DNA of 64,000 bases, taken from IMG/VR virus record IMGVR_UViG_3300020057_000035, positions 32,001 through 96,000 of that record; one strand, written 5' to 3'. The notes below the pieces were generated by a model, which was not told where the DNA came from, did not search any database, and saw only the letters and a list, made by a program, of their open reading frames with translations. The stretch comes from a virus. The position numbers and the translations under genes are program-made. Of this stretch, positions 30,325 through 59,440 are shown piece by piece; within the stretch, counting starts at the first letter, position 1; the number at the start of each line of letters is the position of its first letter.

Positions 30325-31473
30325 ATGCCAAATAAAATAAAAACAAGAAAGCATATGATAAAAACATACCAATATAGATTACAAACAAGAAAAAATACAG
30401 AAGAGAAATTATTATTCACTCTTGAGCAGTGTAGATTGCTTTACAATAAGATATTAGAAACAAAAATTAAATATTATGAAATAGAAATTAAATCATTATC
30501 TATGTTTGATTGTAATAATTTAATTAAAACTTGGGAAATAAAAAATGTTAATGCTCAAGTATTGCAAAATGTTTCAGCAAGAGTAGATAATGCATTTAAA
30601 GGCTTTTTCAGAAGACTAAAAACAAAAGAAAAAAAAGCTGGTTTTCCTAGATTTAGGGGATTTAATAGATATGATTCTTTTACCTTTCCTCAATATGGAT
30701 TTAAATTGAATGGAAAATATCTCAAACTACAAAATATTGGAATTGTTAAAGTAATTTTACATAGACCAATTGAAGGTAGAATTAAAACATGTACAATTAA
30801 ACGAAATGGATTAAATCAATGGTTTGTTAGTTTTGTTTGTGAAATAGATAAAGAAATAATTATTAGTGATAATAAAAAAGCAATAGGTATTGATGTTGGG
30901 TGTAATAAATTTGCAGTAACAAGTGATAATACAATAATTGAGCACCCACATTATTACAGACAATCAGAAAAAAAACTAAAAGAACTTCAATCAAACTTTA
31001 ATGAAGTAATCAATTTATCAAATGATAATAAAAAGAAAATAAATATAAGGAAAAAACTAACAAGAACACATATTAAAGTAAAGAATCAAAGAAAAGATTT
31101 CTTACACAAAACAAGTAGAAGTATAGTAAATGAAAATGGTATTATTTGTGTAGAAAAACTAAATATTAAGAAAATGACTTCTGATAACTGGAAGTCACTA
31201 AACAAAAGCATGCTTGATGGTGGTTGGTATAACTTCAAACAAATGCTAACTTACAAGGCAGAATGGGCCGGTAAGAAAGTAGTTGAAGTAAATCCAGCAT
31301 TCACCAGTCAAACATGTAGTAAATGTGGAAATATTAAAAAGAAAGAATTAAATGAAAGAGTACATAATTGTTCATTTTGTGGATTAATATGTGATCGAGA
31401 TTTTAATGCTTCTTTAAATATATTAAGAGTTGGGATGAACTCTTTGAGTAGAAATATTCTAAATGCTGTTTAA
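30325..31473 (+). mobile_element. tnpB: IS200/IS605-family RNA-guided endonuclease TnpB, no TnpA nearby
   Basis: KTYQYRL, GFPRF, RuvC GIDVG / VEKL / DRDFNASLNI, CxxC...CxxC finger. Confidence 0.93.
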
Positions 31474-31990: not shown

Positions 31991-32341
31991 ATGTCGGGGG
32001 GAAAAAGAAAAAAGACATGTATGCGATGTTCTTCTGCTTTACCTCCACGTAGAATAAAGTGGTGCTCTAATAAGTGCAGCAATTGGTGGTTCGATAATCA
32101 TTGGTATTTTAAAGCCAGACGTAAGGTAGTATTAAAAGCGCGGGTACTTGACAAAAGAAAAGTTTTAGGGTACACGTGTGCTATATGTAATACTTTAGTA
32201 CAAATAATAGAAGTCGATCATATAATTAGAGCAATGGGAACGCATAATATATTAAGCTGTCTACATCATCAAGATAATCTTAGGGTATTATGCATTCCCT
32301 GCCATAGAATAATAACCAAGGAACAAAGGAAAACAAAGTAG
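31991..32341 (+). CDS. HNH endonuclease
   Basis: CAIC...EVDHII...NLRVLCIPCH; ATG 31991 preferred as start. Confidence 0.85.
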   Translation: MSGGKRKKTCMRCSSALPPRRIKWCSNKCSNWWFDNHWYFKARRKVVLKARVLDKRKVLGYTCAICNTLVQIIEVDHIIRAMGTHNILSCLHHQDNLRVLCIPCHRIITKEQRKTK

Positions 32342-37361: not shown

Positions 37362-38227
<866 letters not shown>

Positions 38228-38365
38228 AATAAATATTCATTTATATTTTGTTTTAATATATCCCATTCAAGTTGTGTCATTGCGTGCTTGGCTATATTCT
38301 CAAACCAAGTCTTCTGATGCCCTAATTGTCACTGGTTATTTGATCATCCCCTAAAATAGAATACT

Positions 38366-38441
38366 TGGAGCAGACAGGAGGCCATGATCCCCCAACCTCT
38401 TCATTACAAATGAAGTGCTCTACCACTTGAGCTATGCCTGC
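38366..38441 (-). tRNA. tRNA-Thr(TGT)
   Basis: GCAGGCA/TGTCTGC, CTTCA-TTTGTAA-TGAAG, atypical T-loop ATCATGG, TCCA. Confidence 0.85.
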
Positions 38442-38474
38442 AAAATCGCACTCTGCCAACTGAGTTACACTAGC
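38442..38474 (-). pseudogene. 5' half of a tRNA fused to tRNA-Thr
   Basis: GCTAGTG TA ACTC AGTTGGCA GAGT G CGATT TT ends at the anticodon loop. Confidence 0.7.
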
Positions 38475-38810
38475 CATTATATTATTCTAGCGAAAATACT
38501 GTAATAATCAGTATAGTTGAGTGGCATGCTAACAATCTACTGTCTCAGTATAACAGATTGAGTCCGTATTGTCAAGAGATGTCTAAAAAATCAAAACCTC
38601 TTTATTTCTCATTTTAATCTTTTTTGCTTTAATTGTTATATTGTCTTGATATGCTGCATATCCGTACGCAATATTAAAATGATCATATGCAAAATTTATA
38701 GCTTCTGACAAATAAAACCCATAGTGAATATATGAATACAATTTAATAATAGAAAAATCATCTTTTTTTGTGTAAAAATCTACTATACATTCTTCTGGTT
38801 TATTAATTTT

Positions 38811-39140
38811 TTAACTCCATATTATGCTAAGTTCTGGTGTTAAACCAGAAGTTCTCCAATAAGGTTTATTATATTCTTCTTCTATAATAGTTACTTCTGG
38901 TGTTTCTATTCCTGTGAAAGTATTATTTAAATAATTGAATAATTCGCTTAATTTTTCTAATGTATGCGAATCAATTTTTACTCTCAAAAAAGCACACCAA
39001 TAAACACTAGTTACATTTACTATTTTTCCGCACCCTAACATATTTAATTTATTATGTAAGTCTTCGAATGTCTCTAATATCTCTGACTCATCTATGTCTT
39101 CTACTGTAATGTTTATTTTAAATTCTAATTCTTTTGTCAT
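38811..39140 (-). CDS. Hypothetical protein
   Basis: ORF following the ligase C-half. Confidence 0.5.
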   Translation of the reverse strand: MTKELEFKINITVEDIDESEILETFEDLHNKLNMLGCGKIVNVTSVYWCAFLRVKIDSHTLEKLSELFNYLNNTFTGIETPEVTIIEEEYNKPYWRTSGLTPELSIIWS

Positions 39141-39149
39141 ATTTTTCTC

Positions 39150-39764
39150 TTATTCTTTAAAGTATAAAATGAATTCTGGATTTATTATTTTGAAACTAAG
39201 TCTACCTAGTTCTTTGTCTCTAATAGTATTGTCTTCTGATCTAATTACAATACCCTCTGCCCACACATTATTATTTATTGTTGATTTAATTGTTGCTTTT
39301 GCAACTAATTCATCTATAGTAAATAATAATAAATCAGTACCTAAAAAGGGTACGTGTCTTAAGTCATTTATTTCACAAAAGACAAGCATCTCAAGAAAAT
39401 CTAAATATCTATTTTCTTTTCTTGAGTATACGTTAAATACATATAGATCTTGTTTAGAGAGTTTTAGTTTATTTCCTTGTATTCCCGGCCCTACTAATTC
39501 TCCTTGAACTACATAGTCATCAGAATATTTAGTTAGAATTGATTTAAGATTTAATAGTTTTGCTATTCTCCAATAAGAATTATCTTCTGTTTCTTTTATA
39601 TCTAAGTTTTTACTACACACATGTAATTCACTGTCTTCTACAAATGCAGTCATACTTGAGTTATGCACTAATATACCATTTGCAAAAAAACTATGAGTAT
39701 GTTTTGTTTCTATATCATACTTATTTGAACTACAAGAAATCCTAGTTATTTTTTTAATTTTCAT
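39150..39764 (-). CDS. Split-intein C fragment (35 aa) fused to C-terminal half of a DRB0094-family RNA ligase
   Basis: MKIKKI...YDIET...FFANGILVHN|SSMT...VCSKN...QGELVGPGIQGN...FNV...EGIV...SFKIIN. Confidence 0.92.
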   Translation of the reverse strand: MKIKKITRISCSSNKYDIETKHTHSFFANGILVHNSSMTAFVEDSELHVCSKNLDIKETEDNSYWRIAKLLNLKSILTKYSDDYVVQGELVGPGIQGNKLKLSKQDLYVFNVYSRKENRYLDFLEMLVFCEINDLRHVPFLGTDLLLFTIDELVAKATIKSTINNNVWAEGIVIRSEDNTIRDKELGRLSFKIINPEFILYFKE

Positions 39765-39898
39765 TTATTCATTTTTCCTATTTCTTCTAAAATAAAACTA
39801 TCTAACTCTTCATTGTGATATTAATTGAACCTCACTCGAATTAATCCAACCTGTACTAATTACTTTAATATTAGATGTACTCAGGTTACTCCCTTGTG

Positions 39899-40417
39899 CT
39901 AGTATATCACCTTTGACTGAGAAATGTCAATAGAGGAGCTTTGCTCGCGCAAGACAGTAGGAAATGTCCAAGAAGCCGCAGTTAAACGAAAAACAATTTT
40001 AGTAGGAACATGGGTTACCCCCCTCTCCCACCTAGATACACTACTTTGACTCACCCCTAGTGCTTTAGCGAATCCGCGCTGAGTTTGATGATTTTTTGTT
40101 AGGCCAGATGCTCTTAGTTCTATTAACTCTTCTGGCATCATTGGAGGAAGCAAACAATATTCTCTATTTCTCTCTGCATTAGCACGTTTATATTCTTCCA
40201 TGCCGTTTATTTGTTCCTTATGGCTTTTCTTTATTAGATTATTGTACAAATGAAATATATCATAGTTAAATTTACGTGTTGCAAGTATCATCGGCGTAGT
40301 TGTGCCTTTTTTATTAGGAAATTGTTCTTCTATGCTCAAGCTACGCTGTCTCCAAGTTATTAATTTTCTCTTGGAAAAATACCCCATAAGCATACCATCA
40401 TTGTCTTTAGTCATCAT
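39899..40417 (-). CDS. Protein with C-terminal XRE-type HTH
   Basis: TQRGFAKALGVSQSSVSRWERG. Confidence 0.7.
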   Translation of the reverse strand: MMTKDNDGMLMGYFSKRKLITWRQRSLSIEEQFPNKKGTTTPMILATRKFNYDIFHLYNNLIKKSHKEQINGMEEYKRANAERNREYCLLPPMMPEELIELRASGLTKNHQTQRGFAKALGVSQSSVSRWERGVTHVPTKIVFRLTAASWTFPTVLREQSSSIDISQSKVIY

Positions 40418-40429
40418 TATTAGTTTGTC

Positions 40430-41329
40430 CTAATCCTTCGATATAAGCGGTATTTTAATGCACTTTACTGCTGGTCGTATGCCGCAAAGTGGCAGTTGGG
40501 TAGGTGTTGAAATAGGAGTCAGTGATCCCACTGGAATTAATGTTTCTGGTGTCCTAGTAGGTGTGAAAGAAAAAGTAGGTGTTCTAGTAGGGGTAGAGGT
40601 GCTAAGTGCTATTGTGGATGTTCCTACTGTGCCTGGAGGCGTATTTGCGGGAGTTCCCGAGCATACATAAACAGCACACACACCAGCAATATCATCAGAA
40701 TGTGGCACTGTCATAATACCATGATATGAAGCAAACATTACTGCATTTGTATCTAAAGAATGTCCAAGTCCTGCGCAATGCCCTATTTCGTGCCATAGAA
40801 CTGTTTTAAGATCTATTCCACCTGATCCCCAATTAGCATTAGAGGATATCTCTATATCACATTCATCTGCTCCTGTCCACCAACAAGCAGTAGCTAATAC
40901 AGTACCAGATATAGGATACCAATTTATAGTATTTTCTCCGTTAGAAGCAGCACCTCTACATAAATTAGCATTATCTGAAATAGAAGACAATCCTCCATAT
41001 TGTAAAGATAGGTTTGGTGTTATTCCATTCCAGCTAGTAGTTACTGCGTTTGATACAACAGCTTCGTCATTTACTATAGTTAGAGATTTTCCTTCTGGAT
41101 TATATCTAGTTACTATAGGCATTTTACTTCTCACAAAACCAGTTAACACATAATTTTCTATGTTTATTTCTTCTTTTTCTAAAGAATAAACATCTATATT
41201 AAAAGTAGATCCATCTGCAAATGTTTTAGAGAATGTGTTAAAGTGTGCTTCTGCTTTAGTCATATTACTAAAAGTAATAAACACACCAAAAAACATAAAC
41301 AAACTTAATAATAAATAAATATATCTCAT
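40430..41329 (-). CDS. Secreted matrixin (M10) metalloprotease with Pro/Thr-rich tail
   Basis: Signal peptide, HEIGHCAGLGH, Met-turn AVMF, TPTRTP repeats. Confidence 0.9.
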   Translation of the reverse strand: MRYIYLLLSLFMFFGVFITFSNMTKAEAHFNTFSKTFADGSTFNIDVYSLEKEEINIENYVLTGFVRSKMPIVTRYNPEGKSLTIVNDEAVVSNAVTTSWNGITPNLSLQYGGLSSISDNANLCRGAASNGENTINWYPISGTVLATACWWTGADECDIEISSNANWGSGGIDLKTVLWHEIGHCAGLGHSLDTNAVMFASYHGIMTVPHSDDIAGVCAVYVCSGTPANTPPGTVGTSTIALSTSTPTRTPTFSFTPTRTPETLIPVGSLTPISTPTQLPLCGIRPAVKCIKIPLISKD

Positions 41330-41354
41330 ATTATTATTCTATCATGTTGTTTTT

Positions 41355-41578
41355 GTCAATTACTCACTAATTAATTCTACCTCTTACGTCTACTGTATAT
41401 TACTTTAATGCCCAACCACCACCAACTAATGTTGTTATTGCTAAAATAACTCATTGCTTTGCGCGTTCCAAACACCCATGCTCAATAAGAAATTATTATG
41501 TGTGGCAGGCGATTGTCAATTCGCCAATAGTGGGAAAAACTTCTCACAAGCTCACTAATTTATTAGTGAGTAATTGAC
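41355..41578 (+). mobile_element. Non-autonomous IS200/IS605-derived miniature element with tnpB 3' remnant
   Basis: Inverted ends GTCAATTACTCACTAA...TTAGTGAGTAATTGAC; internal QAIVNSPIVG-coding hairpin like TnpB C-termini. Confidence 0.6.
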
Positions 41579-41579
41579 A

Positions 41580-42023
41580 TTAGTGTTCTCCAAAAGCTAA
41601 TCTGAAATTATTTGGTTTGTATACAGATTCTCTCTGCATCATTCTCTCCTCTAATTCTGGATTGTGTTTTCTTATCAAAGATAAATACTCTTTGTAAAAT
41701 ACAGAATTGTGTTTTTCTTGTATTCCTACTTTGTAATGAGCTAGTTCATGCAAACAAACTATCATTGCATCAATATGATCTTTTCCTATTCTTATAATTA
41801 TATGTCCATCTCCGAAAGTTGTTCCACTAGAAAAAAACCCGCGTTCTTCTAATTTTCTAGTTTTAGTTATTGGTCTTATTTTTAGCTCTCTGTTTCCCTC
41901 TGATTTCCATTCTATTACAGGAGCAAAGGACTCATTATCAAATTCTTTTTCCAACAATATATACATAAATTTTTTAATTTTGTAATCGTGAAGCTTACTT
42001 ACTAATATTTCTTTACTTATCAT
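41580..42023 (-). CDS. HExxH zinc metalloprotease-like protein (SprT-like)
   Basis: CLHELAH...HNSVF. Confidence 0.7.
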   Translation of the reverse strand: MISKEILVSKLHDYKIKKFMYILLEKEFDNESFAPVIEWKSEGNRELKIRPITKTRKLEERGFFSSGTTFGDGHIIIRIGKDHIDAMIVCLHELAHYKVGIQEKHNSVFYKEYLSLIRKHNPELEERMMQRESVYKPNNFRLAFGEH

Positions 42024-42382
42024 TAAAATCCATAATTTGGATTAATGTATATTATTTTTTTAGATCGTATATTCATGTCTATTAACGTATTCCAATATTT
42101 AATTTCTTCTGTTACACCAACACTATAATTCCATCCATCTAGTTTAAGTATCCACAACTCATCTGCTAAATTAAGCATATGAAAATCGTGCTTTTCCCAT
42201 AGCTTAAATCCATGTACATCTGGTTCTTTAATAAATGGAACTAGACCATGTGAGTGAGAAATAGGGGAATAAATGAAATACCCTTTACTAACATAATAAG
42301 CAGCAACTTCACATACTGCTTTTATCCTGTAATCTCTAGTTTCTTGTGATTTATGTGAATATGGACTTGCCAAATAAATCAA
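42023..42382 (-). CDS. DUF1937-like protein (nucleoside deoxyribosyltransferase-like fold)
   Basis: IYLASPYSH, YSPISHSH, GW-YSVGV-EE. Confidence 0.8.
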   Translation of the reverse strand: MIYLASPYSHKSQETRDYRIKAVCEVAAYYVSKGYFIYSPISHSHGLVPFIKEPDVHGFKLWEKHDFHMLNLADELWILKLDGWNYSVGVTEEIKYWNTLIDMNIRSKKIIYINPNYGF

Positions 42383-43888
42383 GTATTTTTTACAGCTAAC
42401 TGTAGTGCATTCTCAACGCGATCCCAACCTACACCATAGAGATCTCCATAAGTCTTTCGAATGTATCTCCATTCTGATAAAGTATCAGCGAGCATCGTTA
42501 TCAACTCTTCGTGGGTATTGAGGATACGAAACATCTCCCTCAGTATGTCATCACAAAAGTCTCCATCATCGCGAACAACCTCACATAGTAAAGTGTTTCC
42601 TTGTACTATGTATTGAACACCAAATGTAGTAGACTTATAAAGCTTCCATACTGTATCATTTTGTTCACTCACTTGGTATTTATCACCTTTAATAGCTGAG
42701 AGTAAAGATACTCTTGTCTTGAAATTAATTGTTGAAAATCTAAAACTCTACCTTGATTAGTATATCCATACTTTAGAATGGCTTTAAGGCAATTAGGTAA
42801 ATCGCTGTAATATCCAATAAAGGACTCTACAGTACCCTCAAGAGCCTCTTTTGTTTTTAGATTTCTTCTTTGTCTATCGTTTTTTCTGTTTACTTGCCAA
42901 CCTGTTCCCTCTACTGAACATTCAAATATTACCCACTCATCAATTTCTAATCTAGTTGCATCTCTTGTTGTTTTCATAAGTTTATGTTACTCTCTCTTAT
43001 TCTGTTTGTCAAGCGGCTCAAAGAATCTTCCATCTTGGCCGCAATATCCTAGTCTATTTTGTCGTTGTATTTTTGCAAAATTATAAATTTCTGTAATTTC
43101 TCCTGTTGATTTATCTATCTCTTCTTTAATCGCAGAAATATGAGTACAAAAACTCCATCTGTCTCTGTTTCTAGGCTCTATTTTATAATGTTTACATTCT
43201 ATACAGATTTTTACCAATCTTTTATATTCTCCGGTTCTAAATCAATCATTTATTCTATCATTTATTCTATTCACTGCTTCTAAGTATTCACTTACTATTC
43301 GCGCCCAATAAAAGTATCTTTTTTTAACATATAATATTGCTATATTAAAATATTCTGTATTATGTAATCTAACAATATATGCTGCTATTTCCACATCATT
43401 AGGATTGTATTTATTTTTACTATTCCATCCCATTTTTTTAACCCAATTAAACACTACTACATCAGATTTATTTAATAGAAACTCATATACTTCTGATTGT
43501 TTTATTTTTTCTATTGCATCATTGGCGTGTCTACAATTTAATACTAGCTTATTAAGTTTCTTAACATCTGTTCTCGGGGCTAGTACTATAGCACTCATAT
43601 TATTTAATCCTCTGGGAGGATATAATTATTATCGTTTGCTTTAAGTTGCGCTAGCATTTCTGCTATCTTAGGGTTTTTGTGCTTCATAAGAGGACTATTA
43701 TGGTTAGTCTTAGAGTACCACGCTTGAAAACCTCCAGTTACTGTAGTAGATATATGGAAGGCAATATACCCTTTATCTAATAACTGTTTAGGTATATACC
43801 AAAATATGTCATTGTTTTCTAATGAATCAAAAGCGGTAAGAGGGAGAAATTTCTCTAAATCTTCGTATAGTTTTTCAATATTAATCAT
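42379..43888 (-). CDS. Five small hypothetical genes (42379-42672, 42669-42977, 42987-43217, 43242-43598, 43604-43888)
   Basis: Tightly packed co-directional ORFs. Confidence 0.55.
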
Positions 43889-44004
43889 AAATATATATTC
43901 TTAATTCTAAACCATGTTTGTTTAGTTTCCCACACTCAGGACAAAGTTGTGTTGAAGGAAAACTTCTTGAAACGAGTATTGTCTCTGATTTCTTTTGTAA
44001 ATCA

Positions 44005-44862
44005 TTAAAATTCCTTACCGCTTTGATTTACGTCAAACACAAATAAACCCATCCTTCTCCACATTCTCACAACTCTTGGTCGATCATCAATTACAAACAA
44101 AACATTCCAAAAATCTTTAATATAGTTATTAAAAATTTCTCTTTTTACAATATCATCTGCTCTATGATCTCCTTCTTTTCTCATAAACAAAGCTAAATAT
44201 TCTACATTGTGTTTCTTGAGCCATTGTTCTGTCTCTTCTCTGAATTCAGAAGTTCTACCAGACAAAAGTATTATTTCATATGGTAAAGCAGAAATAATAT
44301 TGTATACAGGCAAATTTAATTCATCATTTATGAAATCTCTCTTGTAGGGATTTTTATCTCCACCAAAAATCGAGAGTGTGCCGTCGATGTCCACAGTTAC
44401 GGCTTTTTCTAGTTCTGTGTTTGGTACATATTGTTTTAGTTCTTGAACCTGATCTCCATATCGTTTATCATAATCTCTAATTACTTTTTCCCCTACTGAT
44501 TTATCTCTTAACGAATCGCGTCTGATTGCTTCTTCTACTTCAATAGGTACTTGAATAATTTGCATTCCAATATTAGGGTCAATCAATTGTGCAAGCGCAG
44601 AAATATGAATAATAGCGTTACCAAAATTAGTATTATCTACTACTACTGTTTGATTATTCTCAATACCAATTCTGATAATCTCATCTTGAATAAGATTTAC
44701 AATACGTTCATTTGGTTTACTGTGTCTGGAGTCATGAAGCATGGATCTTATGTCGTCTTTTGAAACCCTGAGTGATGTGTCTGGTAATTTACTTACTATT
44801 TCTCTTGCTTTAGTACTTTTTCCTGCGGCAATTCCCCCTTGCATTACAATTATAGTAGACAT
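44005..44862 (-). CDS. pseT: Polynucleotide 5'-kinase/3'-phosphatase (T4 PseT-like)
   Basis: GGIAAGKST P-loop, VVVDNTN, HAD DIDGT, LSGR, IDDRP. Confidence 0.93.
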   Translation of the reverse strand: MSTIIVMQGGIAAGKSTKAREIVSKLPDTSLRVSKDDIRSMLHDSRHSKPNERIVNLIQDEIIRIGIENNQTVVVDNTNFGNAIIHISALAQLIDPNIGMQIIQVPIEVEEAIRRDSLRDKSVGEKVIRDYDKRYGDQVQELKQYVPNTELEKAVTVDIDGTLSIFGGDKNPYKRDFINDELNLPVYNIISALPYEIILLSGRTSEFREETEQWLKKHNVEYLALFMRKEGDHRADDIVKREIFNNYIKDFWNVLFVIDDRPRVVRMWRRMGLFVFDVNQSGKEF

Positions 44863-44985
44863 TTCTTATATTCCTCATATTTTTTTAAATCTTTATCTAA
44901 AAATTTCATTGTTTTATTCTCTAGTAGTTCGTCTTATTTGTCCTATCCCCGGAAGGTATTCCATTTAGATATATTATTGTTTCCA

Positions 44986-45840
44986 CTATAATTGATCAAC
45001 TAACATTAAAAGATCCCCCACCTTTAAAAGATCTGCTCTCCTATAACAATTCAATTCAGGAACCCAGACCTTGTGATTACCAGTTAAGGTTATATTTGTT
45101 CCGTTCTCTAATTCAATTTCATACCAATCATTTGATTTTGAACCTATTGAATGCCCAACAACATCATCCCAGAACACTTCTTCTTTTTCAGTGTCAAAAG
45201 ACTTTATTTTACCAGTATATTTAATATCACAAACTTCTTTTATAGTCTTTGGTCCATCCTCTGTATCTATTACAGCACAGTCCGAAAGACAGCCATCAAC
45301 TTTCTCTGTGACGTAGATAGGAACGCCAGAATGCCTCTGTAGCACAGTAGGAACACTCTGTATTCGTGTTTCGTCTGTTTTCGATATGAAACTAGGGAAA
45401 GATCCTCGCACGAGTCCAGAGAGCGATCCAATTAAAGGTATCTCATATTTATGAATCCCCATTAACTCGGTTACATCCGTTCCTTCTTCAAGAATATCTT
45501 GTGTAAATCCATAATTAGACATGAAACTTGATAAATCAGAAATAGGTAAACATAAGCCTTGTGACACAGATCCGCGCAAGCGAACCGTACGTAATCTGTA
45601 TCCTTCTTTTGTTTCTCCATTTACATTCATAGTTTTTCTTCCGTCTTTTTCCATGAATTCAAATAGGGTGTGTATAGGTAAAAAAGCATCAGGTTCAATA
45701 AATACAACTGTATCATTTACATTAAATTTGCCTTTTTGTACGCACAAATTCCAGCCCAAAACAACCGCTATTTCTAGCAGATCAGCGTTGGGGTGTTTTT
45801 TTATTTCTTTAATTTTCTGGATGCTTGCGATTTTTCTCAA
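44986..45840 (-). CDS. N-terminal half of a DRB0094-family RNA ligase fused to split-intein N fragment (101 aa)
   Basis: MRKIASIQKI...HPNAD...RLRGSVSQGL...FPSFISKTDETRIQ...TEKVDG|CLSD...TGNH...DLLKVGD. Confidence 0.93.
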   Translation of the reverse strand: MRKIASIQKIKEIKKHPNADLLEIAVVLGWNLCVQKGKFNVNDTVVFIEPDAFLPIHTLFEFMEKDGRKTMNVNGETKEGYRLRTVRLRGSVSQGLCLPISDLSSFMSNYGFTQDILEEGTDVTELMGIHKYEIPLIGSLSGLVRGSFPSFISKTDETRIQSVPTVLQRHSGVPIYVTEKVDGCLSDCAVIDTEDGPKTIKEVCDIKYTGKIKSFDTEKEEVFWDDVVGHSIGSKSNDWYEIELENGTNITLTGNHKVWVPELNCYRRADLLKVGDLLMLVDQL

Positions 45841-46067
45841 AATTAAGATGCTCCTTGTTTGTATCTTAACTGAAACTTAGTATTTTGTCAAGCGGTCGGT
45901 GACATTTATTTTCCCAACACGCCATCGTAACTTTCTTTCCTTTTTCCCCCTGCGTTATGTGCCAATGATCAAATGATAAATAAGTATGATAATCTTCTTT
46001 TTCATCTTTACACATGTTGCAATATCTTTTTGAACCATCTACTTTAGGATAATGGAAATGTCTCATT

Positions 46068-46439
46068 CTAACTCTGCTTTTTGAAAACCCTTACATCTCC
46101 TACTTGAACATATTGAACTAGTCTTTTTTTACACCTACTACATATTTCTATTTTTTCTGTCCACAAACATGCCCACCCAGGATTCCCAGGAAATGCTTCA
46201 TTGCAATTAGTTGTTACATCTACTCCATTTATTTCAACATATAATTCTGTACTTTGTATATCTACTCCGTCTACTTCTATATATAATCCAGACATACCAT
46301 GAGTTTTATCTATTCTAATAGGAAAATCAAATCTATTACATTTTAAACACAATAACTGATTATTCATCCATGATCGATCTACTAATTTAGCTTTTTCTGG
46401 ATCTGCATTAATTGTTTTAAATCTATTGTTTCTATTCAT
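46068..46439 (-). CDS. Hypothetical protein
   Basis: AGGAG RBS, CxxC pairs. Confidence 0.5.
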   Translation of the reverse strand: MNRNNRFKTINADPEKAKLVDRSWMNNQLLCLKCNRFDFPIRIDKTHGMSGLYIEVDGVDIQSTELYVEINGVDVTTNCNEAFPGNPGWACLWTEKIEICSRCKKRLVQYVQVGDVRVFKKQS

Positions 46440-46491
46440 TTGGTACTAATATTGCTCCTTCTACTTAAACTGCATATTAACATTTATTGCC

Positions 46492-48981
46492 TTAGCCAAC
46501 AGATCCATCCATTTGTAGCTCTATTAATCTATTTAGTTCTACAGCATATTCCATTGGTAGTTGTTTTACGATTGGTTCTATAAAGCCATTAACAATCATT
46601 TTTGCGGCGGAATCTTCACTCATACCTCTACTCATAAGATAAAATAATTGATCTTCACCAAGTTTCGAGACATACGCTTCGTGCTGAATATGTACATCTG
46701 ATGAATCTATTTCCATCGTCGGATACGTGTCCGAGCGAGAAGTTTCACCTACGAGAAGCGCATCACATCTTACATTCGATTTAATGTTTTCACAATTATC
46801 ATATACTTTAAGTAATCCACGATAACTCGTTCTTCCACCATCAATACTTACTGATTTTGAAACAACTGTTGAAGTAGTATTAGATGCGCTATGAATTACT
46901 TTTCCACCAGCGTCTAAATGTTGTCCTTTTCCAGCAACAGCAAGAGAAAGTATTTCTCCGTGTGCTCTTTCTCCCATTAAATAAATGCTGGGATACTTTA
47001 GAGTTAAGCAACTTCCTCCGTTGAAATCTGTCCATTCCATAACTGAATCTTCATATGCAACTGCGCGTTTAGTAACAAGATTATATACATTATTAGACCA
47101 ATTTTGAATTGTTGTATACCTTACTCTTGCGCCTTTTTTAACTATTATTTCTACTACAGCACTGTGTAATGATTCAGAACTATACACGGGGCTGGAACAG
47201 TTGTGAACAACAAAACCAGAAGCTAAATAACTATTAGGAAAATCAACATTTAAATTATAAACAGGCTCTGAAATATCTCTAGTAGATATTTTTTTAATAG
47301 GAACTAGAAAATATTCTCCAGCGTCCCGTACTTCTCGTGAACCATTACCCCCTTCTGTCCATTGAACTTGATACAATGCGTGACGCATTATATGCCTACC
47401 TAAAATTTCTCCTGACCCAGCTACTCGTGACATACTAATAGTAGAATAAATATCTAATGTAGCCATAATTGATTGAAGCTGAAGTGCCCACGTTCGAGAG
47501 GTAGTGTGTGCTCTTTTCCAATCTACATTTTTTCTTTTGATAACATTACCATCACCATACATATATGTTTCTACCAAATTTTTAAGAAATTCTTTATTTT
47601 GTCCCATTAAGACAGAAGATAGTTTTTTGCTATATGATCTAGTTCCAATATGATTTTTCATTGCATCATATCCTTCGTTTGTATAAACAAGAACTCTTCC
47701 CTCATGTTTTTTCTTGTCATAATAAACTGATCCGCTAGATCCATATAAATATTTACAAATACTTTGAACTTCTTCAATATATTGTGTTTCATTAATATGA
47801 AAGGAGAAACTCAAAGCTTTGTATTTATTACATAATTGCGCAGATCCTTCAGCAAGATAATATCCAGCTAATCTAGCAAACTCTATAGGCATGTTAATAT
47901 TTGACTTAATGTGTTTTGGTTTAGGGAACACTAAAAAGTCTCCATCAAGTACATCTTTTGCTTTAACCCATTCAGGAATAGAATTTATTAGTGATGGGCT
48001 ATTAACTTCAGGTTTATTTTGCTTACGTTGTTTACGTTTTATTAACACTTTAAGTCTTGGAACAATCAACAAGGGGTGTTCTCCCGTAACTGAAAAAGCA
48101 CTATTTGGTGATATTGGTTTAAATGTAAATAGTGTTCCAGAAAAATCTCGTACTTGTGTAGCATTAACTCGGACAGGGCTACCGTTTTGATCTAATACAT
48201 GATCTCCGACTTTTACATCTTCAATTCCAGACCAACTACCGTCCGCCATGGATATTGATTCTCCCGCTATAAGACACCCTTCAAGGTAGTGGACTTGACT
48301 ATCTTCATCAGCAATAATCAATGTTCTTTCGAATTGTCCCATTACTTCTGTATTGATTCTAAAATATGCCTGTAAAGGAATATCCACTTTTACACCTTTT
48401 GGTATATAAATAAAACTGCCCCCTGACCAACAGGCGCTATTAAGTGCGGCGTATTTATTATCTCCGGGAGGTATTATTGTACTAAAATATTCTCTAAGTA
48501 AATCTGGATATTCTATTAGTGCTTGATCTGTACTTAAAAATATAACACCAAGTTTTTCAAGATCTTCCCTTAATTTATGATAAATAACAGTAGAATCCAT
48601 TTGCGCTCCAACGCCAGCCAAATACTTCTTTTCTGCTTCTGGTACCCCTAATTTATCAAAAGTTGTTTTGATATATTCTGGTACATCTTCCCAAGAACTT
48701 TCGTCTTTATCAGAAGCTGTTACATAATACCTTATGTTATCAAAGTCGATATTTTCTAGTTGATTTGTGCTTGTCCACGTTGGATTTTTTTGTTTATAAA
48801 ATAAATCAAGTGATTTAAGTCTAAATTTTCTCATCCACTCCGGTTCATTTTTCATATCAGATATTGTATTAATAATATCAGAACTTAAACCCTTATTAGA
48901 TTTAAATACAGGAGGGGTGTCATCGTGGAAACCATACTTGGTTTCGTAATTTTCTTCTTTTACTAATGTAGCACTGTTCAT
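46492..48981 (-). CDS. sufB: Fe-S cluster scaffold SufB with intein
   Basis: YAALNSACWSGGSFIY, PLQAYFRIN, GQFERTLII, RYTTIQNWS, LPMEYAVELNRLI. Confidence 0.96.
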   Translation of the reverse strand: MNSATLVKEENYETKYGFHDDTPPVFKSNKGLSSDIINTISDMKNEPEWMRKFRLKSLDLFYKQKNPTWTSTNQLENIDFDNIRYYVTASDKDESSWEDVPEYIKTTFDKLGVPEAEKKYLAGVGAQMDSTVIYHKLREDLEKLGVIFLSTDQALIEYPDLLREYFSTIIPPGDNKYAALNSACWSGGSFIYIPKGVKVDIPLQAYFRINTEVMGQFERTLIIADEDSQVHYLEGCLIAGESISMADGSWSGIEDVKVGDHVLDQNGSPVRVNATQVRDFSGTLFTFKPISPNSAFSVTGEHPLLIVPRLKVLIKRKQRKQNKPEVNSPSLINSIPEWVKAKDVLDGDFLVFPKPKHIKSNINMPIEFARLAGYYLAEGSAQLCNKYKALSFSFHINETQYIEEVQSICKYLYGSSGSVYYDKKKHEGRVLVYTNEGYDAMKNHIGTRSYSKKLSSVLMGQNKEFLKNLVETYMYGDGNVIKRKNVDWKRAHTTSRTWALQLQSIMATLDIYSTISMSRVAGSGEILGRHIMRHALYQVQWTEGGNGSREVRDAGEYFLVPIKKISTRDISEPVYNLNVDFPNSYLASGFVVHNCSSPVYSSESLHSAVVEIIVKKGARVRYTTIQNWSNNVYNLVTKRAVAYEDSVMEWTDFNGGSCLTLKYPSIYLMGERAHGEILSLAVAGKGQHLDAGGKVIHSASNTTSTVVSKSVSIDGGRTSYRGLLKVYDNCENIKSNVRCDALLVGETSRSDTYPTMEIDSSDVHIQHEAYVSKLGEDQLFYLMSRGMSEDSAAKMIVNGFIEPIVKQLPMEYAVELNRLIELQMDGSVG
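47200..48276 (-). mobile_element. SufB intein (LAGLIDADG), 359 aa
   Basis: YLEG|CLIAGE...TGEH...LAGYYLAEG...YGDG...VVHN|CSSP. Confidence 0.93.
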
Positions 48982-53730: not shown

Positions 53731-54174
53731 TTAAACACAGACAATAAACCTGCCATCTAGTATATTTTCTAACATCGGTTTTACTTGTATTTCCCAATTT
53801 AATCCACCTAAACCGCATCCTAACTTTGGTAATGCAATTTTATCGTCTTTTGAAACATGCTCACTTACTAAAATAGCATTTTGTTTAATTAGTTCAATAG
53901 AAGAAGAGTCTTTCCAATGTATTTTAGTAGGAAAGCATATTAAGGATTTTGGTTTTCCGTTTATATCAGAAGTGGTTATTGCTTTAGGCTTATCTTTTTT
54001 ATATTGTATCGCCTTGCCATATAAGTACTGTAGTCTTGAATATTTATCAGATGCTTGCTTAGCCAAACCTGCTCCCATAACAGCAGTTCCATCTTTTCTG
54101 ATTTGACAATTTGTGGGTATTATGATATAGTCACAATCTATTTCCCAAATATCTATCCCAGCTACAGTAATCAA
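53731..54174 (-). CDS. Macrodomain ADP-ribosylhydrolase-like protein
   Basis: PTN...VMGAGLA...FPTK-HW...ALPKLGCGLGGL-W. Confidence 0.9.
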   Translation of the reverse strand: MITVAGIDIWEIDCDYIIIPTNCQIRKDGTAVMGAGLAKQASDKYSRLQYLYGKAIQYKKDKPKAITTSDINGKPKSLICFPTKIHWKDSSSIELIKQNAILVSEHVSKDDKIALPKLGCGLGGLNWEIQVKPMLENILDGRFIVCV

Positions 54175-56723
54175 TTAGAAAAATAAACAGGATACAGGGC
54201 CTCCAGACCTCTTTTTTCGCTCATCACAAGCACAGTTTGTGATGGTTTACTTATTTTACCATATGCCTTAAGGTACCAGTTGCTTCCGCCGTCAATCGTG
54301 CCATTCTGACATACTGTGATTCCTCCGACTCTGAAACTAGCGAAATCATGCCTGTGTCCCGTAAGTACTAACTCGGGTGTGCATTTAAATATGTTTGATA
54401 AAGCCCATTGTGGTAGTAATCTTTGTAGATCCCACACTGGTCCTCTCCATTGATCTCCATGCATCATTACTACATCGTGACTTAATGAGTTAAGTTTACC
54501 CCACCAATTTTCGTGTATATTCCATTTTATATTTGATTGATTTATACATTTATCTTGCGCCCACCAAGCTAACATTGTATCAAAGTTGTCTTCTGGATCA
54601 GCATAATCATTTTTACCATTTGGTCTACCATGATTACCGGGAACACTATCTACTATTACTTCTGGAAAATAACTTGCCATGTCCATAGCTAATGATGCTA
54701 CTAATCTTGCTGCCATTGGTATTTGTCTTGTTATTCTATGTGAATTAGCTGTCTTATCTAACCCAGAAACGTTTTGTCCAGCGTAAATAAAACAGTTATG
54801 AGTAACAACACCATCTGCTATAAAGGTATGATCTTGATCGACGGTTATGTTATACACAGGCTCTGCTATTTCACTTTTGTTTATCTCTAACACCTTAGAA
54901 TATCTACACCCTAAAGGAGGATCTACGACTCTTCCTTTATCACAAACTGGATAAGTGGTAACTCTCCTAGTCCTTTTTTTGTTGCCCCACCTTTTATTAT
55001 ATATAGGTGTATAAGAGCCTACTTTCATATTTAAATCTGAGGAGTTACACATAGAAACCCACAACACAGACTCCATTGATCCTCCTTGTGGAAGAGGACA
55101 TATTCTAGTTTGTGATCTAATTCTAGATGTTAATAATCCCGAAGTGACACACAATTCATTAATATCTCTAATAAGATCTTTATTAGTAGAGCTATAAACT
55201 ATTTGTCCTAGTTTATTAACGTATCCATCTGAATCTAAATATCCCCTAAGAAATGCTAATTTATACTCATTAGATAAATTAAATACCCATTTTGGAACCC
55301 GTTTAGTTCTAGCATATCCAGCTACACCAGCATTAACCATTATCTCTGCTGCTTGTTTTGAACTAAACCTAGATCCGCTTTCATTTAGACCAATGTGTAT
55401 TTGTTCTCCGTTGTGTTTTATAAATAATTGTTTACATATATCCCAATATCTATCCATGTATCCAATATTTTTATTATCATGAGATAAATAAATACCAGAA
55501 GGATTTCCTTTTATGTCTCTTGTTAAACACCCATTCCCTAAGTAAAAACCCAATATTTCCATTAACTCAATAGATGCTGTTCCAACCGGAGTATAATTAC
55601 TTTCAGATTTAACATCATCAACTATACATAATAAATCCCCCTCTCTAACATCAGAGGCTCTGATGTATTCATGTGTGGTTATGTATCTATTTCTCTTTGG
55701 AAGAACATGAGTAGATATTTTAGTTCTTCGTTGTACCAAAATAGGATGTTCTGCATTAGCTTTAATTGTTTTCTCTATAGATCCAATTGTATATATTGGA
55801 TCTATCCCAGTCATTTCAGAAGCAATTACTTCTCTTGCTTTAAACCCACTCCCTGTATATGCCCAAACATAATCTCCTTTTTGTATATTTTGAATTTCTA
55901 TTGGACCTGTCGGCGTAGACACTATAGATCCAGCAGGTAAGCATCCTTCGACGAGATCTCCAAGTAAGACTAACCTACCAGTATTGATTGGACAACCAGA
56001 CGCTTTGAAGTGTTCTGTGATTTTTCTTGCTGCGTCCATTAGTCTAGGTATTCTTTCTTCTTCCATTATTTTAATACCTATCCCATTTTCCATTTTTCCT
56101 ATTTGCCAATCAGAAGCCACTACAATAATTTCTCTCTCACTCTTTGAAGAATTATTTTTATTAGGAATTGGAACGATAGGAAATCTTAATTCTGGGGTTG
56201 AGTCATGTAGGTCTTTTAATTCGAATCTCATAAAGTCTCGTAATGAGGTTAAGTATGTATTTTTTCTTATTAATTGATTTTTTTGTTCAAATGCTCTTTT
56301 TGCCATTTCAAGATTAGTAGCATCGGGCAACAGAGATCCCTCTTCTTGAAGTATCTCTTCTGTAGTCCATTCTAAATCAGAATTATGGCACACAGAAGAA
56401 CAAAAGAAGTTATTAGCATTTACTGGAACAAATCTATTTATGCAAAGTTTATTTTTACATCGTCTTGTTATTGATGTTTCTGTAATTTCTTCTTTTATTA
56501 TTTTTGAAATTCCTGCTCCCTTTCCTCTAGAAATAAACTTACCATGTACTCTTTTTACATATTCTGATACGGATTTTGCACTCTTAATTACACCGAAATT
56601 TGTAGCTATACTTTCAGATATGTTTTTTCCTATATGTACATCATCACTATTATTGATCTCTTGATCAATAAAATCAGATATAAGTTTTTTTGTTTCTTTA
56701 TCACACTCTTTATAAAGAATCAA
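54171..56723 (-). CDS. Calcineurin-like metallophosphoesterase with intein
   Basis: SDWQIGK, LGDLVEG, PGNHG, HGD, GHRH. Confidence 0.88.
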   Translation of the reverse strand: MILYKECDKETKKLISDFIDQEINNSDDVHIGKNISESIATNFGVIKSAKSVSEYVKRVHGKFISRGKGAGISKIIKEEITETSITRRCKNKLCINRFVPVNANNFFCSSVCHNSDLEWTTEEILQEEGSLLPDATNLEMAKRAFEQKNQLIRKNTYLTSLRDFMRFELKDLHDSTPELRFPIVPIPNKNNSSKSEREIIVVASDWQIGKMENGIGIKIMEEERIPRLMDAARKITEHFKASGCPINTGRLVLLGDLVEGCLPAGSIVSTPTGPIEIQNIQKGDYVWAYTGSGFKAREVIASEMTGIDPIYTIGSIEKTIKANAEHPILVQRRTKISTHVLPKRNRYITTHEYIRASDVREGDLLCIVDDVKSESNYTPVGTASIELMEILGFYLGNGCLTRDIKGNPSGIYLSHDNKNIGYMDRYWDICKQLFIKHNGEQIHIGLNESGSRFSSKQAAEIMVNAGVAGYARTKRVPKWVFNLSNEYKLAFLRGYLDSDGYVNKLGQIVYSSTNKDLIRDINELCVTSGLLTSRIRSQTRICPLPQGGSMESVLWVSMCNSSDLNMKVGSYTPIYNKRWGNKKRTRRVTTYPVCDKGRVVDPPLGCRYSKVLEINKSEIAEPVYNITVDQDHTFIADGVVTHNCFIYAGQNVSGLDKTANSHRITRQIPMAARLVASLAMDMASYFPEVIVDSVPGNHGRPNGKNDYADPEDNFDTMLAWWAQDKCINQSNIKWNIHENWWGKLNSLSHDVVMMHGDQWRGPVWDLQRLLPQWALSNIFKCTPELVLTGHRHDFASFRVGGITVCQNGTIDGGSNWYLKAYGKISKPSQTVLVMSEKRGLEALYPVYFSN
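54795..55943 (-). mobile_element. Metallophosphoesterase intein (LAGLIDADG), 383 aa
   Basis: VEG|CLPAG...NAEH...GFYLGNG...RGYLDSDG...VTHN|CFIY. Confidence 0.92.
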
Positions 56724-57223: not shown

Positions 57224-58033
57224 CTAATCCTTTACCATATCTAAAGCATACTCTACTGCTTTAAGTGTTTCTGGGTCTTTATCTTGTACTCTGTAACACA
57301 AAGACTCTTTATAGCAGGCTCTACACTGTTTACTTGTTCTAACAAAAGGTGGCTCTATTAGTTCACCCCTCTTACTGTATTCTCTTGCTACCATTGGAAG
57401 AGCAAACAAATCATTCATTAGCTTTGTATCAGGCTTAACATATCTTATTTTATACTCTTGAGTATCTGTATTCTCAAATAAGAATATTCCTACATCTGAT
57501 GTCTTATACTCTGTGTCTTTGAATATTTTAATATATTGAGCTAATTGATACATATATGATCTTTCTTGTATAGCAAACATTCTAGCCATTTGTTCTAGAT
57601 CTTCTGTTTGTTCTGGAAGACTTTTATATCTAAATGCGTTCATTGTTTTTATTTCTAAAATAAAATTTTCATCAGTGAGTGGATTTTTTACTATGACATC
57701 GCACTCTCCACTCCAACCTATTTCTTCTACTTTCAGTCTAACATTTTTGGCTACCAGTATTCCTGATGCTTCAAATTCATCATTCCATCTATCGTGTGCG
57801 GCTGTACCGTTTCTTGTTCTTCTTAGGTTTTGTGGTTTCATTTTTTCTCTGAAACCTAACATAGAAAATTGAATAGCTCTTGAGCAATTACCACCAGAAC
57901 TAGATGGTCTAATAGATAACACGGGTGGAGAATTTAGACCATTTTTATTGCCTTCTCTAAATAGTTGTTGATCTAAGTTTTCTCCTACCCAATCTTTGTC
58001 TCTTATTTGTTTTAGAAACCTACTTATTCCCAT
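57224..58033 (-). CDS. Cas4-like PD-(D/E)xK exonuclease
   Basis: PS...C, GTAAH, SGECD, EIKT, QLAQY, CxxC...C. Confidence 0.85.
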   Translation of the reverse strand: MGISRFLKQIRDKDWVGENLDQQLFREGNKNGLNSPPVLSIRPSSSGGNCSRAIQFSMLGFREKMKPQNLRRTRNGTAAHDRWNDEFEASGILVAKNVRLKVEEIGWSGECDVIVKNPLTDENFILEIKTMNAFRYKSLPEQTEDLEQMARMFAIQERSYMYQLAQYIKIFKDTEYKTSDVGIFLFENTDTQEYKIRYVKPDTKLMNDLFALPMVAREYSKRGELIEPPFVRTSKQCRACYKESLCYRVQDKDPETLKAVEYALDMVKD

Positions 58034-58382
58034 TAAATTTATCCATTCTGTCTGAGATCGTCCACATATGCTCTTCTACAAAACTTTCTATAATCAACAG
58101 AAGCTGTTCTTTATCTTTTAATTGTACTTCATTTATTCTCAAAATAGGAACACCGGCTATTTCTAAAAACCAAAGATCTCTATTTTTGTCATGAAGTTTT
58201 TGTTTCGGAGAATCATGCATTGGTCCATCATATTCAAACCCTAAATGCACTTCTTCTACATAACAATCAAGAGTGTATTTTCCTATTTGCTTCTCGTCTT
58301 CTACACCAAACCCTATGTCAGAAATAATAGAATGTAATTCTCTATGTGGTTTAGTTAAAGATGTTGGTTGTGTGACAGACAT
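58020..58382 (-). CDS. DUF559/Vsr-like endonuclease
   Basis: YTLDCY...EYDGPMH...D-NRD...ILRI. Confidence 0.8.
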   Translation of the reverse strand: MSVTQPTSLTKPHRELHSIISDIGFGVEDEKQIGKYTLDCYVEEVHLGFEYDGPMHDSPKQKLHDKNRDLWFLEIAGVPILRINEVQLKDKEQLLLIIESFVEEHMWTISDRMDKFNGNK

Positions 58383-59440
58383 TAAAAAGAAGACTCTTCT
58401 ATAGGAAGACTTAAATCATCTTTTAAATATTGCTCTAACTCTGGAGTAGATTTAATAAGATCTATAAAACCAGCTTTTCCCATAATCTTATTTTCTTTAT
58501 AATCATAGTATGCTCCGCGTTTAATTATGATACCTCTTTCTACTGCCTCTGTTACCATACTCCAAATATAATCAATTTTACCTGTTGCGAACATAAAAGG
58601 TATTTCTGTTTTTTGAAAAGGAACTCCTTGTTTGTTTTTTTCAACAATCAATTCAAGCATATATCCAACTTTAGCTTTACTAGCTCCTACACCTTCCTCA
58701 ATCCATTCTCCTCTCTTAACTCTAATTTTTTGCCAAGCCCAATAAGCAGAAGAACGCCCCCCTGGTTGTGTTTCTGGATTACCATACATAGTTGGTGAAA
58801 CTCTTGTTTGATTTATAATCAAAAGCATGGTACCTTCATTCTCAGCCATTGCATTGTTTAATCCCATTTGATTCAAAGAAGCATTAGCCATAGGTTGAGG
58901 TTTTTCAAACATCTCATTTAAATCTTTATTTAAAGACTTAGAGGAAGCTATAGAAGCAAGAGAATCTATAACAATTACACCTACTCTCTTTCTTATCCAG
59001 AAAATTACAGCTTCCCAGACCTCTTCTCCTGTTTTTGGTCTTACAACAAGGACATCATTTGAGTTTACCCCAACCTTAGCTGACCACTCAGGAACCCAAG
59101 AATGCTCTACATCTATGTAGATAATGCTTAGATTTTGATCCTGTGCTGCCTTCATAGCTAATAATGCTACTACTGTTTTTCCAGCAGAGGCATCTCCAAA
59201 TATCATATTTACTCTATCGAACGCTAAGCCACCATCTAAAAGATTATCTAGGGTTGGAATACCAAAAGGAAGTAACTTAAGCTCAAACTTTTCATTGTCT
59301 CCCCAGTTTAATTTAGAATTAAGTTCTTGTTCAATTTGTTTTTGTTGTTCTTTAAGATTTTCGATTGAAAGCAGGTGAGAAGAACCCTCACCCACTTCTT
59401 TATTTTTAGATTTAACCACGAACTGCTTTTGATAGTTCAC
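58382..59440 (-). CDS. recA: RecA/UvsX-family recombinase
   Basis: GDASAGKT, YIDVE, VIDSLA, INQTR, YGNPETQPGG, KNK. Confidence 0.92.
   Translation of the reverse strand: MNYQKQFVVKSKNKEVGEGSSHLLSIENLKEQQKQIEQELNSKLNWGDNEKFELKLLPFGIPTLDNLLDGGLAFDRVNMIFGDASAGKTVVALLAMKAAQDQNLSIIYIDVEHSWVPEWSAKVGVNSNDVLVVRPKTGEEVWEAVIFWIRKRVGVIVIDSLASIASSKSLNKDLNEMFEKPQPMANASLNQMGLNNAMAENEGTMLLIINQTRVSPTMYGNPETQPGGRSSAYWAWQKIRVKRGEWIEEGVGASKAKVGYMLELIVEKNKQGVPFQKTEIPFMFATGKIDYIWSMVTEAVERGIIIKRGAYYDYKENKIMGKAGFIDLIKSTPELEQYLKDDLSLPIEESSF

Follow-up and report, generated by a model that had tools for sequence, protein, structure and literature searches.

Two distant reading frames in the genome of an uncultured phage from a microbial mat each join part of an RNA ligase to part of an intein. 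Judged from their residues, they very probably represent a class-1 intein that is naturally split and sits in motif I (KVDG↓S, the arrow marking the insertion point) of an Rnl5-type ATP-dependent RNA ligase. The frames lie in the window, by which we mean the whole stretch of DNA analysed (64,000 nucleotides, positions 32,001 to 96,000 of IMG/VR virus record IMGVR_UViG_3300020057_000035). Since the splicing mechanism is known and split ligases proved common, the unusual part of the locus is the wide separation of its halves without a homing-endonuclease gene; the accepted view of how split inteins work is unchanged by it.

Two reading frames encode collinear parts of one RNA ligase

A sequence-only reading had proposed that the N-terminal half comprises 183 residues of a DRB0094-type ligase, ending in TEKVDG, followed by an IntN of 101 residues, and that the C-terminal half opens with a 35-residue IntC (...GILVHN), after which SSMT and the remaining ligase follow. 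Both open reading frames were confirmed at the proposed positions:

44986-45840, minus strand: rnl-N, N-extein plus IntN, 284 aa, TTG start with AAGGAG ribosome-binding site
45292-45840, minus strand: N-extein, 183 aa, comprising the OB-like N domain and the first part of the nucleotidyltransferase domain up to motif I TEKVDG (K180), from PF21189 and the NgrRnl alignment
44989-45291, minus strand: IntN, 101 aa, with Cys1 (C184) and block B T253-x-x-H256, from TIGR01445
39150-39764, minus strand: rnl-C, IntC plus C-extein, 204 aa
39660-39764, minus strand: IntC, 35 aa, with block F (YDIET..HSFFANG) and block G (ILVHN), from TIGR01443
39153-39659, minus strand: C-extein, 169 aa from Ser+1 (SSMT), with motifs III, IIIa, IV and V, from PF09414 and the NgrRnl alignment

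The TTG start of rnl-N lies at 45840, with its ribosome-binding site 10 nt upstream. Residues 5-100 of the N-half matched the PF21189 OB domain (E 2e-25) and the C-half matched PF09414 RNA_ligase (E 1e-20). Against TIGR02306 (RNA_lig_DRB0094), the N-half scored 121.9 bits and the C-half 49.8, each below the cut-off of 151.15, which is exceeded only by their rough sum. When aligned to NgrRnl (solved structure, 5cot), residues 1-184 of the N-half fell on positions 4-175 and residues 30-183 of the C-half on positions 169-326. G183 corresponds to G174 of NgrRnl and Ser+1 to S175, and the exteins abut with no residue lost or doubled. This agrees with the proposal that splicing would rebuild motif I within a 352-residue enzyme, for which we predict a mass of 40.1 kDa.

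The ligase motifs are intact, with motif I (KVDG) in the N-half and motifs III (QGELVG), IIIa (F of YVFNVY), IV (EGIVIR) and V (SFKIIN) in the C-half. K180 and G183 are invariant in the alignment of N-half homologues (A4), as are G92, F110, E170, G171 and K192 of the C-half in the alignment of C-half homologues (A3). Genome-wide, a single IntC of the rnl-C type and a single PF09414 match were found. The predicted product resembles DraRnl of Deinococcus (DRB0094) and NgrRnl of Naegleria in having N-terminal OB-like and nucleotidyltransferase domains and no C-terminal domain, whereas the phage enzyme is encoded as two pieces. An uninterrupted T4 Rnl1-like ligase is also present in the phage (9801-10898).

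Intein residues and nearest relatives

The N-half matched the intein_Nterm profile TIGR01445 with 33.3 bits (cut-off 24.5) and the C-half the intein_Cterm profile TIGR01443 with 29.1 bits (cut-off 15.6). The block A nucleophile C184 directly follows G183 and is invariant in 15/15 homologues. Block B is present as T253-G-N-H256, with T253 and H256 invariant among 12-15 homologues. Blocks F and G are likewise present and end in the terminal His-Asn followed by Ser+1 (YDIET...HSFFANGILVHN↓S), and D17, F26-N29, H34 and N35 of IntC are invariant in alignment A3. With all intein catalytic positions present and invariant among homologues, trans-splicing is predicted. The split falls at the endonuclease-insertion point: a stop codon follows IntN residue 101, and the Met of IntC, encoded by the rnl-C ATG at 39764, comes immediately 3' of an in-frame stop.

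The fragment sizes (101 and 35 aa) and charges are typical of split inteins; IntN, described in the sequence-only reading as acidic, has a computed net charge of -9.1, and IntC, described as basic, one of +3.7. The likeness to DnaE-type inteins that had been suggested holds for these sizes and charges; by family profile, NrdJ-1 is nearer. In searches with the family profiles, the NrdJ-1 split intein was the nearest solved relative of IntN (E 2e-10) and was also matched by IntC (E 5e-8), while DnaE inteins gave weaker matches to IntN (E 2e-7 to 5e-5). The family profile was required here, as phmmer with IntN alone against the PDB returned no more than a weak TFIIB-intein match. The nearest relative of both intein halves is one and the same, L013.

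Ten genes between the halves and a promoter-like site before each half

The halves are 5.2 kb apart. Where about ten unrelated genes including PNKP had been reported between them, we counted exactly ten co-oriented ORFs, none of them related to intein or ligase; they are listed here together with the promoter-like sites before the two halves:

45863-45891, minus strand: promoter-like site before rnl-N, TTGACA-17-TAAGAT
44005-44862, minus strand: PNKP, kinase P-loop and HAD phosphatase, first gene after rnl-N (PF25109 E 8e-37, AAA_33 E 8e-10)
39899-43888, minus strand: nine more intervening genes, namely seven small ORFs, an M10-like peptidase and an HTH_3 protein
40430-41329, minus strand: M10-like secreted peptidase
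39899-40417, minus strand: HTH_3 protein
39901-39930, minus strand: promoter-like site before rnl-C, TTGACA-18-TATACT with extended -10 TG, then a 137-nt leader

One of the seven small ORFs matched DUF1937 and one gave a faint WLM-like HExxH match. [quoted passage not shown] The sole Vsr/DUF559-like ORF detected in the endonuclease search, at 58020-58382, lies outside the gap.

In the related loci (n = 90), the distance between halves does not exceed 1.76 kb (median 0.97 kb, most gaps about 1 kb), and a Vsr-like homing-endonuclease gene usually sits between them. All ten gap ORFs tested from these loci matched DUF7487, most with an additional faint match of Vsr/DUF559 type. Possible further uncoupled loci are L046, L120 and L101, where the 1.9-3.4 kb around the N-half contain no IntC; the C-half is absent throughout the L046 record, which is only 54% complete.

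The sigma70 promoters expected near 45890 and 39930 correspond to predicted promoter-like sites running from 45891 to 45863 and from 39930 to 39901, and both resemble one sigma70 type. Overall, the promoter scan stayed at the shuffled level (42 sites against 41.4 expected); what weight the two sites have comes solely from the strand bias of the TTGACA-N17-TAnnnT class, for which 21 of 22 window matches lie on the gene-direction strand. All twelve genes from rnl-N to rnl-C are co-oriented, and no intergenic terminator was found across this block. We consider it doubtful that the uncoupling is functional, as in the two-input switch suggested by the sequence-only reading, with rnl-N and PNKP co-expressed from one promoter and rnl-C expressed from another 5 kb downstream. 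If it were, the ligase would be active only with both transcription units on, and RNA repair would be controlled by a post-translational AND gate.

Alternatively, the locus could be a decaying relic that lost its endonuclease and was rearranged, its halves no longer being made together or spliced and the phage relying on the Rnl1-like ligase. With this second, intact ligase present, selection on the split enzyme could be relaxed, and the outlier arrangement (in no other of the 90 loci does the gap between halves exceed 1.8 kb) is as compatible with decay as with uncoupling. However, neither ORF is interrupted, each has a ribosome-binding site and a promoter-like site, and all catalytic residues of intein and ligase are kept. 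Moreover, in the diverged strain represented by contig L078 the N-half is open with only two substitutions, despite the replacement of the neighbouring PNKP segment. We regard decay as quite unlikely.

Two assemblies agree on the separation of the halves

Misassembly had been named beforehand as a risk for this locus, and it would mean that the halves are truly adjacent or come from different genomes. The record is a short-read metagenome assembly, and the junction at the start of rnl-C (39743-39813) was unbridged in samples X4 and X5 and bridged only in a sample that is possibly the source of the DNA. Nevertheless, a Logan contig (depth 88) covers 38954-46100 with zero differences from the IMG record, two assemblers thereby agreeing over the 7.1 kb; X4 and X5 tile the region collinearly at even depth; and the junction from rnl-N to PNKP recurs independently in L078. 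An artefact of this kind is very improbable.

Split inteins are common at the adenylation motif of ligases

IntN has relatives in at least 252 clusters (50% identity) at E ≤ 1e-10. Among the best 149 of the 252, nearly all lie at or beside ligase motif I (KxDG/KxHG) or at a second Rnl5 site (KTDExR), and 148 are split, ending about 99 aa past Cys1. The host proteins are Rnl5, Rnl1, Rnl2-like and ATP DNA ligases, the DNA ligases bearing same-clade inteins at KLDG↓CR. The 90 related loci contain cognate IntN/IntC pairs in ligases, and the +1 residue in the clade is Ser, Cys or Thr. A check for contiguous or split alleles at KxDG↓S, as suggested in the sequence-only reading, yielded mostly split ones, along with the contiguous L037, P0138 and P0139, the last of which includes a LAGLIDADG domain and lies at the same KVDG↓C site. 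Relatives on viral contigs were recovered by an alignment-based scan, while a single-protein scan gave none; megablast of 38000-47000 against phage records gave no match. In the tree, the window intein fell loosely among inteins of Rnl1 hosts, with L013 nearest (55% identity), and apart from other Rnl5 motif-I inteins. A switch of host gene by the intein was considered, and the tree support was too weak for this claim.

The earlier statement that no split intein was known in an RNA ligase stands for the literature searched, in which we found no paper describing one, but not for sequence data, which hold hundreds of relatives in RNA and DNA ligases. Indeed, split-intein ligases are common in metagenomes and not a rarity. 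RNA ligases of three families can be counted among the hosts that split inteins have fractured, and KxDG, the active-site motif of covalent nucleotidyltransferases, stands out as a major hot spot for inteins in phages. Conceivably, the inteins of these ligases form a single very large, undescribed clade whose specialised target is the lysine-adenylation motif and which has spread among four families of ligase (Rnl5, Rnl1, Rnl2-like and ATP DNA ligase). The clade, NrdJ-1-related and comprising those 252 or more clusters, could also supply numerous orthogonal protein-ligation candidates.

Relation to known split genes

Like the split inteins of DnaE (Ssp/Npu) and Nanoarchaeum PolB, the window intein has its halves at separate loci, rejoined (here by prediction) through trans-splicing, and combines an acidic IntN of about 100 aa with a basic IntC of about 35 aa. 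The hosts of those inteins are cellular replication enzymes whose halves lie hundreds of kb apart, in contrast to a phage RNA-repair enzyme with both halves inside one co-oriented gene block.

Fractured genes with split inteins, including a DNA ligase locus, the NrdJ-1 intein and a gp41-7 locus that has no homing-endonuclease gene, were described by Dassa, London, Stoddard, Schueler-Furman and Pietrokovski in 2009 (PMC2677866). As in those loci, a split intein here interrupts a phage enzyme gene, the break lying where endonucleases usually insert, and relatives of the window intein are found on either side of endonucleases from the same Vsr-like family (DUF7487 plus Vsr/DUF559). However, the intein here resides in an RNA ligase, a host absent from the eight enzyme types listed there, and in place of a free-standing endonuclease gene ten unrelated genes separate the halves. 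In terms of the 2009 model, the locus corresponds to the final, "uncoupled" stage (steps III-IV, endonuclease loss followed by uncoupling; PMC2677866) and not to the compact layout. It would thus be a phage example of a predicted end stage documented earlier only in cells.

Proposed mechanism

We propose that rnl-N and rnl-C are translated into separate precursors (32 and 23.7 kDa) and that acidic IntN and basic IntC associate, whereupon the HINT domain would fold and Cys1, the TxxH block, the terminal HN and Ser+1 would perform protein trans-splicing. Splicing would give the complete ligase, in which K180, the lysine to be adenylated, is joined to motifs III-V; a complete nucleotidyltransferase domain is expected in neither half alone. 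That the intein halves are merely a non-covalent dimerisation module, the ligase working as two unspliced chains as intein-free fractured genes such as the SbcD-like and NrdA cases can (PMC2677866), is extremely improbable, given that homologues throughout the family retain every splicing residue and that motif I would hardly accommodate an unspliced 136-aa insert three residues past the catalytic lysine.

If the halves are spliced as predicted, the ligase and the adjacent PNKP could heal and seal broken RNA during infection. The locus would represent a late "fractured gene" stage, in which the free-standing Vsr-like endonuclease was lost and the gap filled by other genes. The position of PNKP by the ligase gene, the presence of an Rnl1-like ligase and the 12 tRNA genes of the phage recall the tRNA-repair pair Pnkp and Rnl1 of T4. 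Rnl5 enzymes, however, are known for sealing nicks in duplex RNA and not breaks in tRNA loops.

Two ORFs encode the halves of a split-intein RNA ligase

We recovered both ligase ORFs where the sequence-only reading had placed them:

44986-45840, minus strand: rnl-N, the N-half (N-extein plus IntN) of an Rnl5-type RNA ligase, 284 aa, with a TTG start 10 nt downstream of an AAGGAG site
39150-39764, minus strand: rnl-C, the C-half (IntC plus C-extein), 204 aa, with an ATG after an in-frame stop

The N-half carries a PF21189 OB domain (E 2e-25) and scored 121.9 bits against TIGR02306 RNA_lig_DRB0094 and 33.3 bits with the intein N-terminal model TIGR01445 (cut-off 24.5). For the C-half, PF09414 matched at E 1e-20, TIGR02306 gave 49.8 bits, and TIGR01443, which models intein C termini, gave 29.1 bits against a cut-off of 15.6. 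Based on alignment to the solved Naegleria ligase NgrRnl (N-half 1-184 to 4-175; C-half 30-183 to 169-326), the last N-extein residue is the KxDG Gly and the first C-extein residue is the Ser right behind it, with no loss or duplication. Computed sizes are 183 aa for the N-extein and 169 aa for the C-extein, with a predicted spliced product of 352 aa (40.1 kDa); IntN (101 aa) has a computed net charge of -9.1 and IntC (35 aa) one of +3.7.

All splicing residues (C184, T253 and H256 in rnl-N, block F Asp, H34 and N35 in rnl-C, and Ser+1) and all ligase motifs were present in sequence comparisons, and they are invariant or nearly so among homologues. Judged by its sequence, the element is a genuine split intein, and its mechanism is of a type already known. 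The oppositely charged IntN and IntC would associate and trans-splice the exteins, yielding a complete adenylation site that neither half holds alone. The sequence-only reading likened the fragment sizes and charges to DnaE-type split inteins; by family profile, the nearest solved intein is NrdJ-1 (E 2e-10 for IntN and 5e-8 for IntC), followed by the DnaE inteins.

The layout is supported by other assemblies

Two other samples, which carry their own SNPs, tile this stretch in matching order and connect rnl-N to PNKP, a kinase/phosphatase gene; both leave the start of rnl-C (39743-39813) unbridged. An 8230-nt Logan contig covers 38954-46100 with zero differences. L078, a JGI contig from a separate assembly, runs collinear with 43946-46333 and has an N-half that differs by two residues (D156G and V181I). 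Misassembly is therefore unlikely, though less firmly so at the rnl-C junction. The mat population holds two alleles of a PNKP phosphatase-domain segment (44034-44433), where L078 is 63-76% identical to the window, as against 99-100% on both flanks; in run X5, one of the two other samples, a joint (44029->44399) spans the same segment.

Related split inteins are abundant in ligases

A word-index search turned up some 15 further N-halves whose IntN is homologous, together with C-halves to match. Scans of viral and metagenome contigs yielded 156 loci, among which 110 IntN sequences are distinct.

Intein sites in the ligases
Rnl5-type ligases: after KxDG or KxHG
Second Rnl5 site: after KTDExR
T4 Rnl1-like ligases (PF09511): after EKxDG
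Rnl2-like/PF09414 ligases: after KxHG or KxDGEN
ATP DNA ligases (PF01068): after KLDG, before CR

When IntN by itself was the query of an exhaustive HMMER search, 575 clusters passed E<=1e-3, of which 252 also passed E<=1e-10. Junction motifs among the best 149 clusters were Kx[DHE]G|C (108), TDExR|C (17), KxDGxx|C (11) and others (12), most of the last being near variants of the listed motifs. The sequence-only reading had called for contiguous or split alleles at KxDG|S, and both kinds exist: 148 of these best 149 clusters are split and one is contiguous. Contiguous forms include the contig L037 and the proteins P0138 and P0139. The P0139 intein, which has a LAGLIDADG domain, also interrupts KVDG|C, so by sequence this site serves two or more intein lineages.

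P0139 (711 aa), by alignment, and P0140 (722 aa), by domain content alone, are both Rnl5 ligases whose LAGLIDADG intein is contiguous. The closest N-half relative, P0002 (394 aa, 48% identity), has an HNH domain at its N terminus, either a true fusion or a product of joint gene calling. In L004:9914-13289 (same in L083 and L084), two split inteins from this clade divide an Rnl5-type ligase into three pieces: one comes after KTDEPR, the other is an IntN/IntC pair further on, and the final extein piece begins near 12795.

The halves are uncoupled and lack an intervening endonuclease

The gap between the halves holds ten co-oriented ORFs:

PNKP, directly 3' of rnl-N
Seven small ORFs, among them a DUF1937 protein and another that shows a faint WLM-like HExxH match
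An M10-like peptidase and an HTH_3 protein

At 5.2 kb, this gap is three times the family maximum among the 90 loci with both halves, in which the spacing between the IntN ORF end and the start of IntC ranges from contiguous (L037) to 1762 bp (median 974 bp). The ~1-kb gaps of related loci encode a ~300-aa ORF; 10 of 10 tested matched DUF7487, most with faint Vsr/DUF559-type matches, and on sequence grounds this ORF is the homing endonuclease that Dassa et al. 2009 described as Vsr-like. No endonuclease resembling those of related loci was found among the window's ten gap ORFs, which bears out the earlier remark that none was recognisable between the halves. The uncoupling of the halves and the absence of the endonuclease are what is distinctive at this locus.

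Dassa et al. 2009 proposed that fracturing is followed by endonuclease loss (gp41-7 locus) and then by "genomic uncoupling" of the halves, a last step for which they could cite cellular DnaE and PolB alone (PMC2677866). The arrangement seen here fits the uncoupled stage, in a phage. Further uncoupled split-intein ligases may be represented by three contigs that are cut short, whose N-halves are followed by 1.9-3.4 kb of sequence with no IntC in it (L046:9527-10423, a DNA ligase; L120:4871-5506 and L101:47-658, both Rnl1-like).

Elsewhere in the window, a stand-alone 120-aa DUF559/Vsr-like nuclease ORF (58020-58382, minus strand), directly downstream of recA (58382-59440), shows weak likeness to the catalytic domain of the Vsr-like endonucleases between intein halves. 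Vsr-like ORFs in recA group I introns were reported by Dassa et al. (PMC2677866).

Transcription and repair context

A promoter-like class, TTGACA-N17-TAnnnT, follows gene direction in 21 of its 22 window hits, and the rnl-N start has one member 23 nt in front of it. For rnl-C, a TTGACA-18-TGaTATACT site is found 137 nt upstream. Internal genes are likewise preceded by promoter-like sites (43012 and 41359), and no intergenic terminator-like site was found at the locus. Separate transcription of the halves is plausible from these motifs and read-through across the locus possible; the two-input switch on RNA repair suggested by the sequence-only reading is speculation. PNKP beside rnl-N suggests an end-healing and sealing pair, and in the contigs L033 and L047 a PNKP gene is likewise found 3-4 kb away from a split Rnl2-like ligase. 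Looser TTGACA-N17-TAnnnT sites span window 1295-60880, and a promoter unit TTGACAcaaat...TGcTAAGAT is highly repeated, the first 32 kb containing about 60 minus-strand copies (genome C1:1950-31604).

Host enzyme and genome setting

The split-intein hosts listed by Dassa et al. are gp41, IMPDH, DnaE, NrdA, NrdJ, DNA ligase and terminase, RNA ligase being absent (PMC2677866). We found no report of a split intein in an RNA ligase in full-text searches that covered only a minority of subscription journals; the nearest item was a preprint with contiguous inteins in an actinobacteriophage "RtcB-like RNA ligase" and a tRNA-splicing ligase. RNA ligase as a host enzyme appears unpublished, yet it is abundant in sequence data, and the claim that none was known holds for the papers searched but not for sequences.

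The parent record is a 111.8 kb IMG/VR virus, estimated 73% complete, from microbial-mat metagenomes, with 12 tRNA genes. In the whole genome PF09414 is matched once, and an IntC of this type likewise occurs once. The record also carries contiguous endonuclease-bearing inteins:

15904-21852: ribonucleotide reductase, two inteins, with HNH_3 and LAGLIDADG matches within the ORF
22966-25473: TerL, one LAGLIDADG intein
46492-48981: SufB, one LAGLIDADG intein
54171-56723: unassigned 850-aa ORF, one LAGLIDADG intein

An uninterrupted T4 Rnl1-like ligase (9801-10898, plus strand; PF09511, TIGR02308) has a free EKKDG|S, the site held by intein relatives in Rnl1-type ligases of other phages. This phage genome further encodes a TnpB/IS605 OrfB-type gene (window 30325-31473, plus strand) with Cas12f1-like TNB, OrfB_IS605 and HTH_OrfB_IS605 domains.
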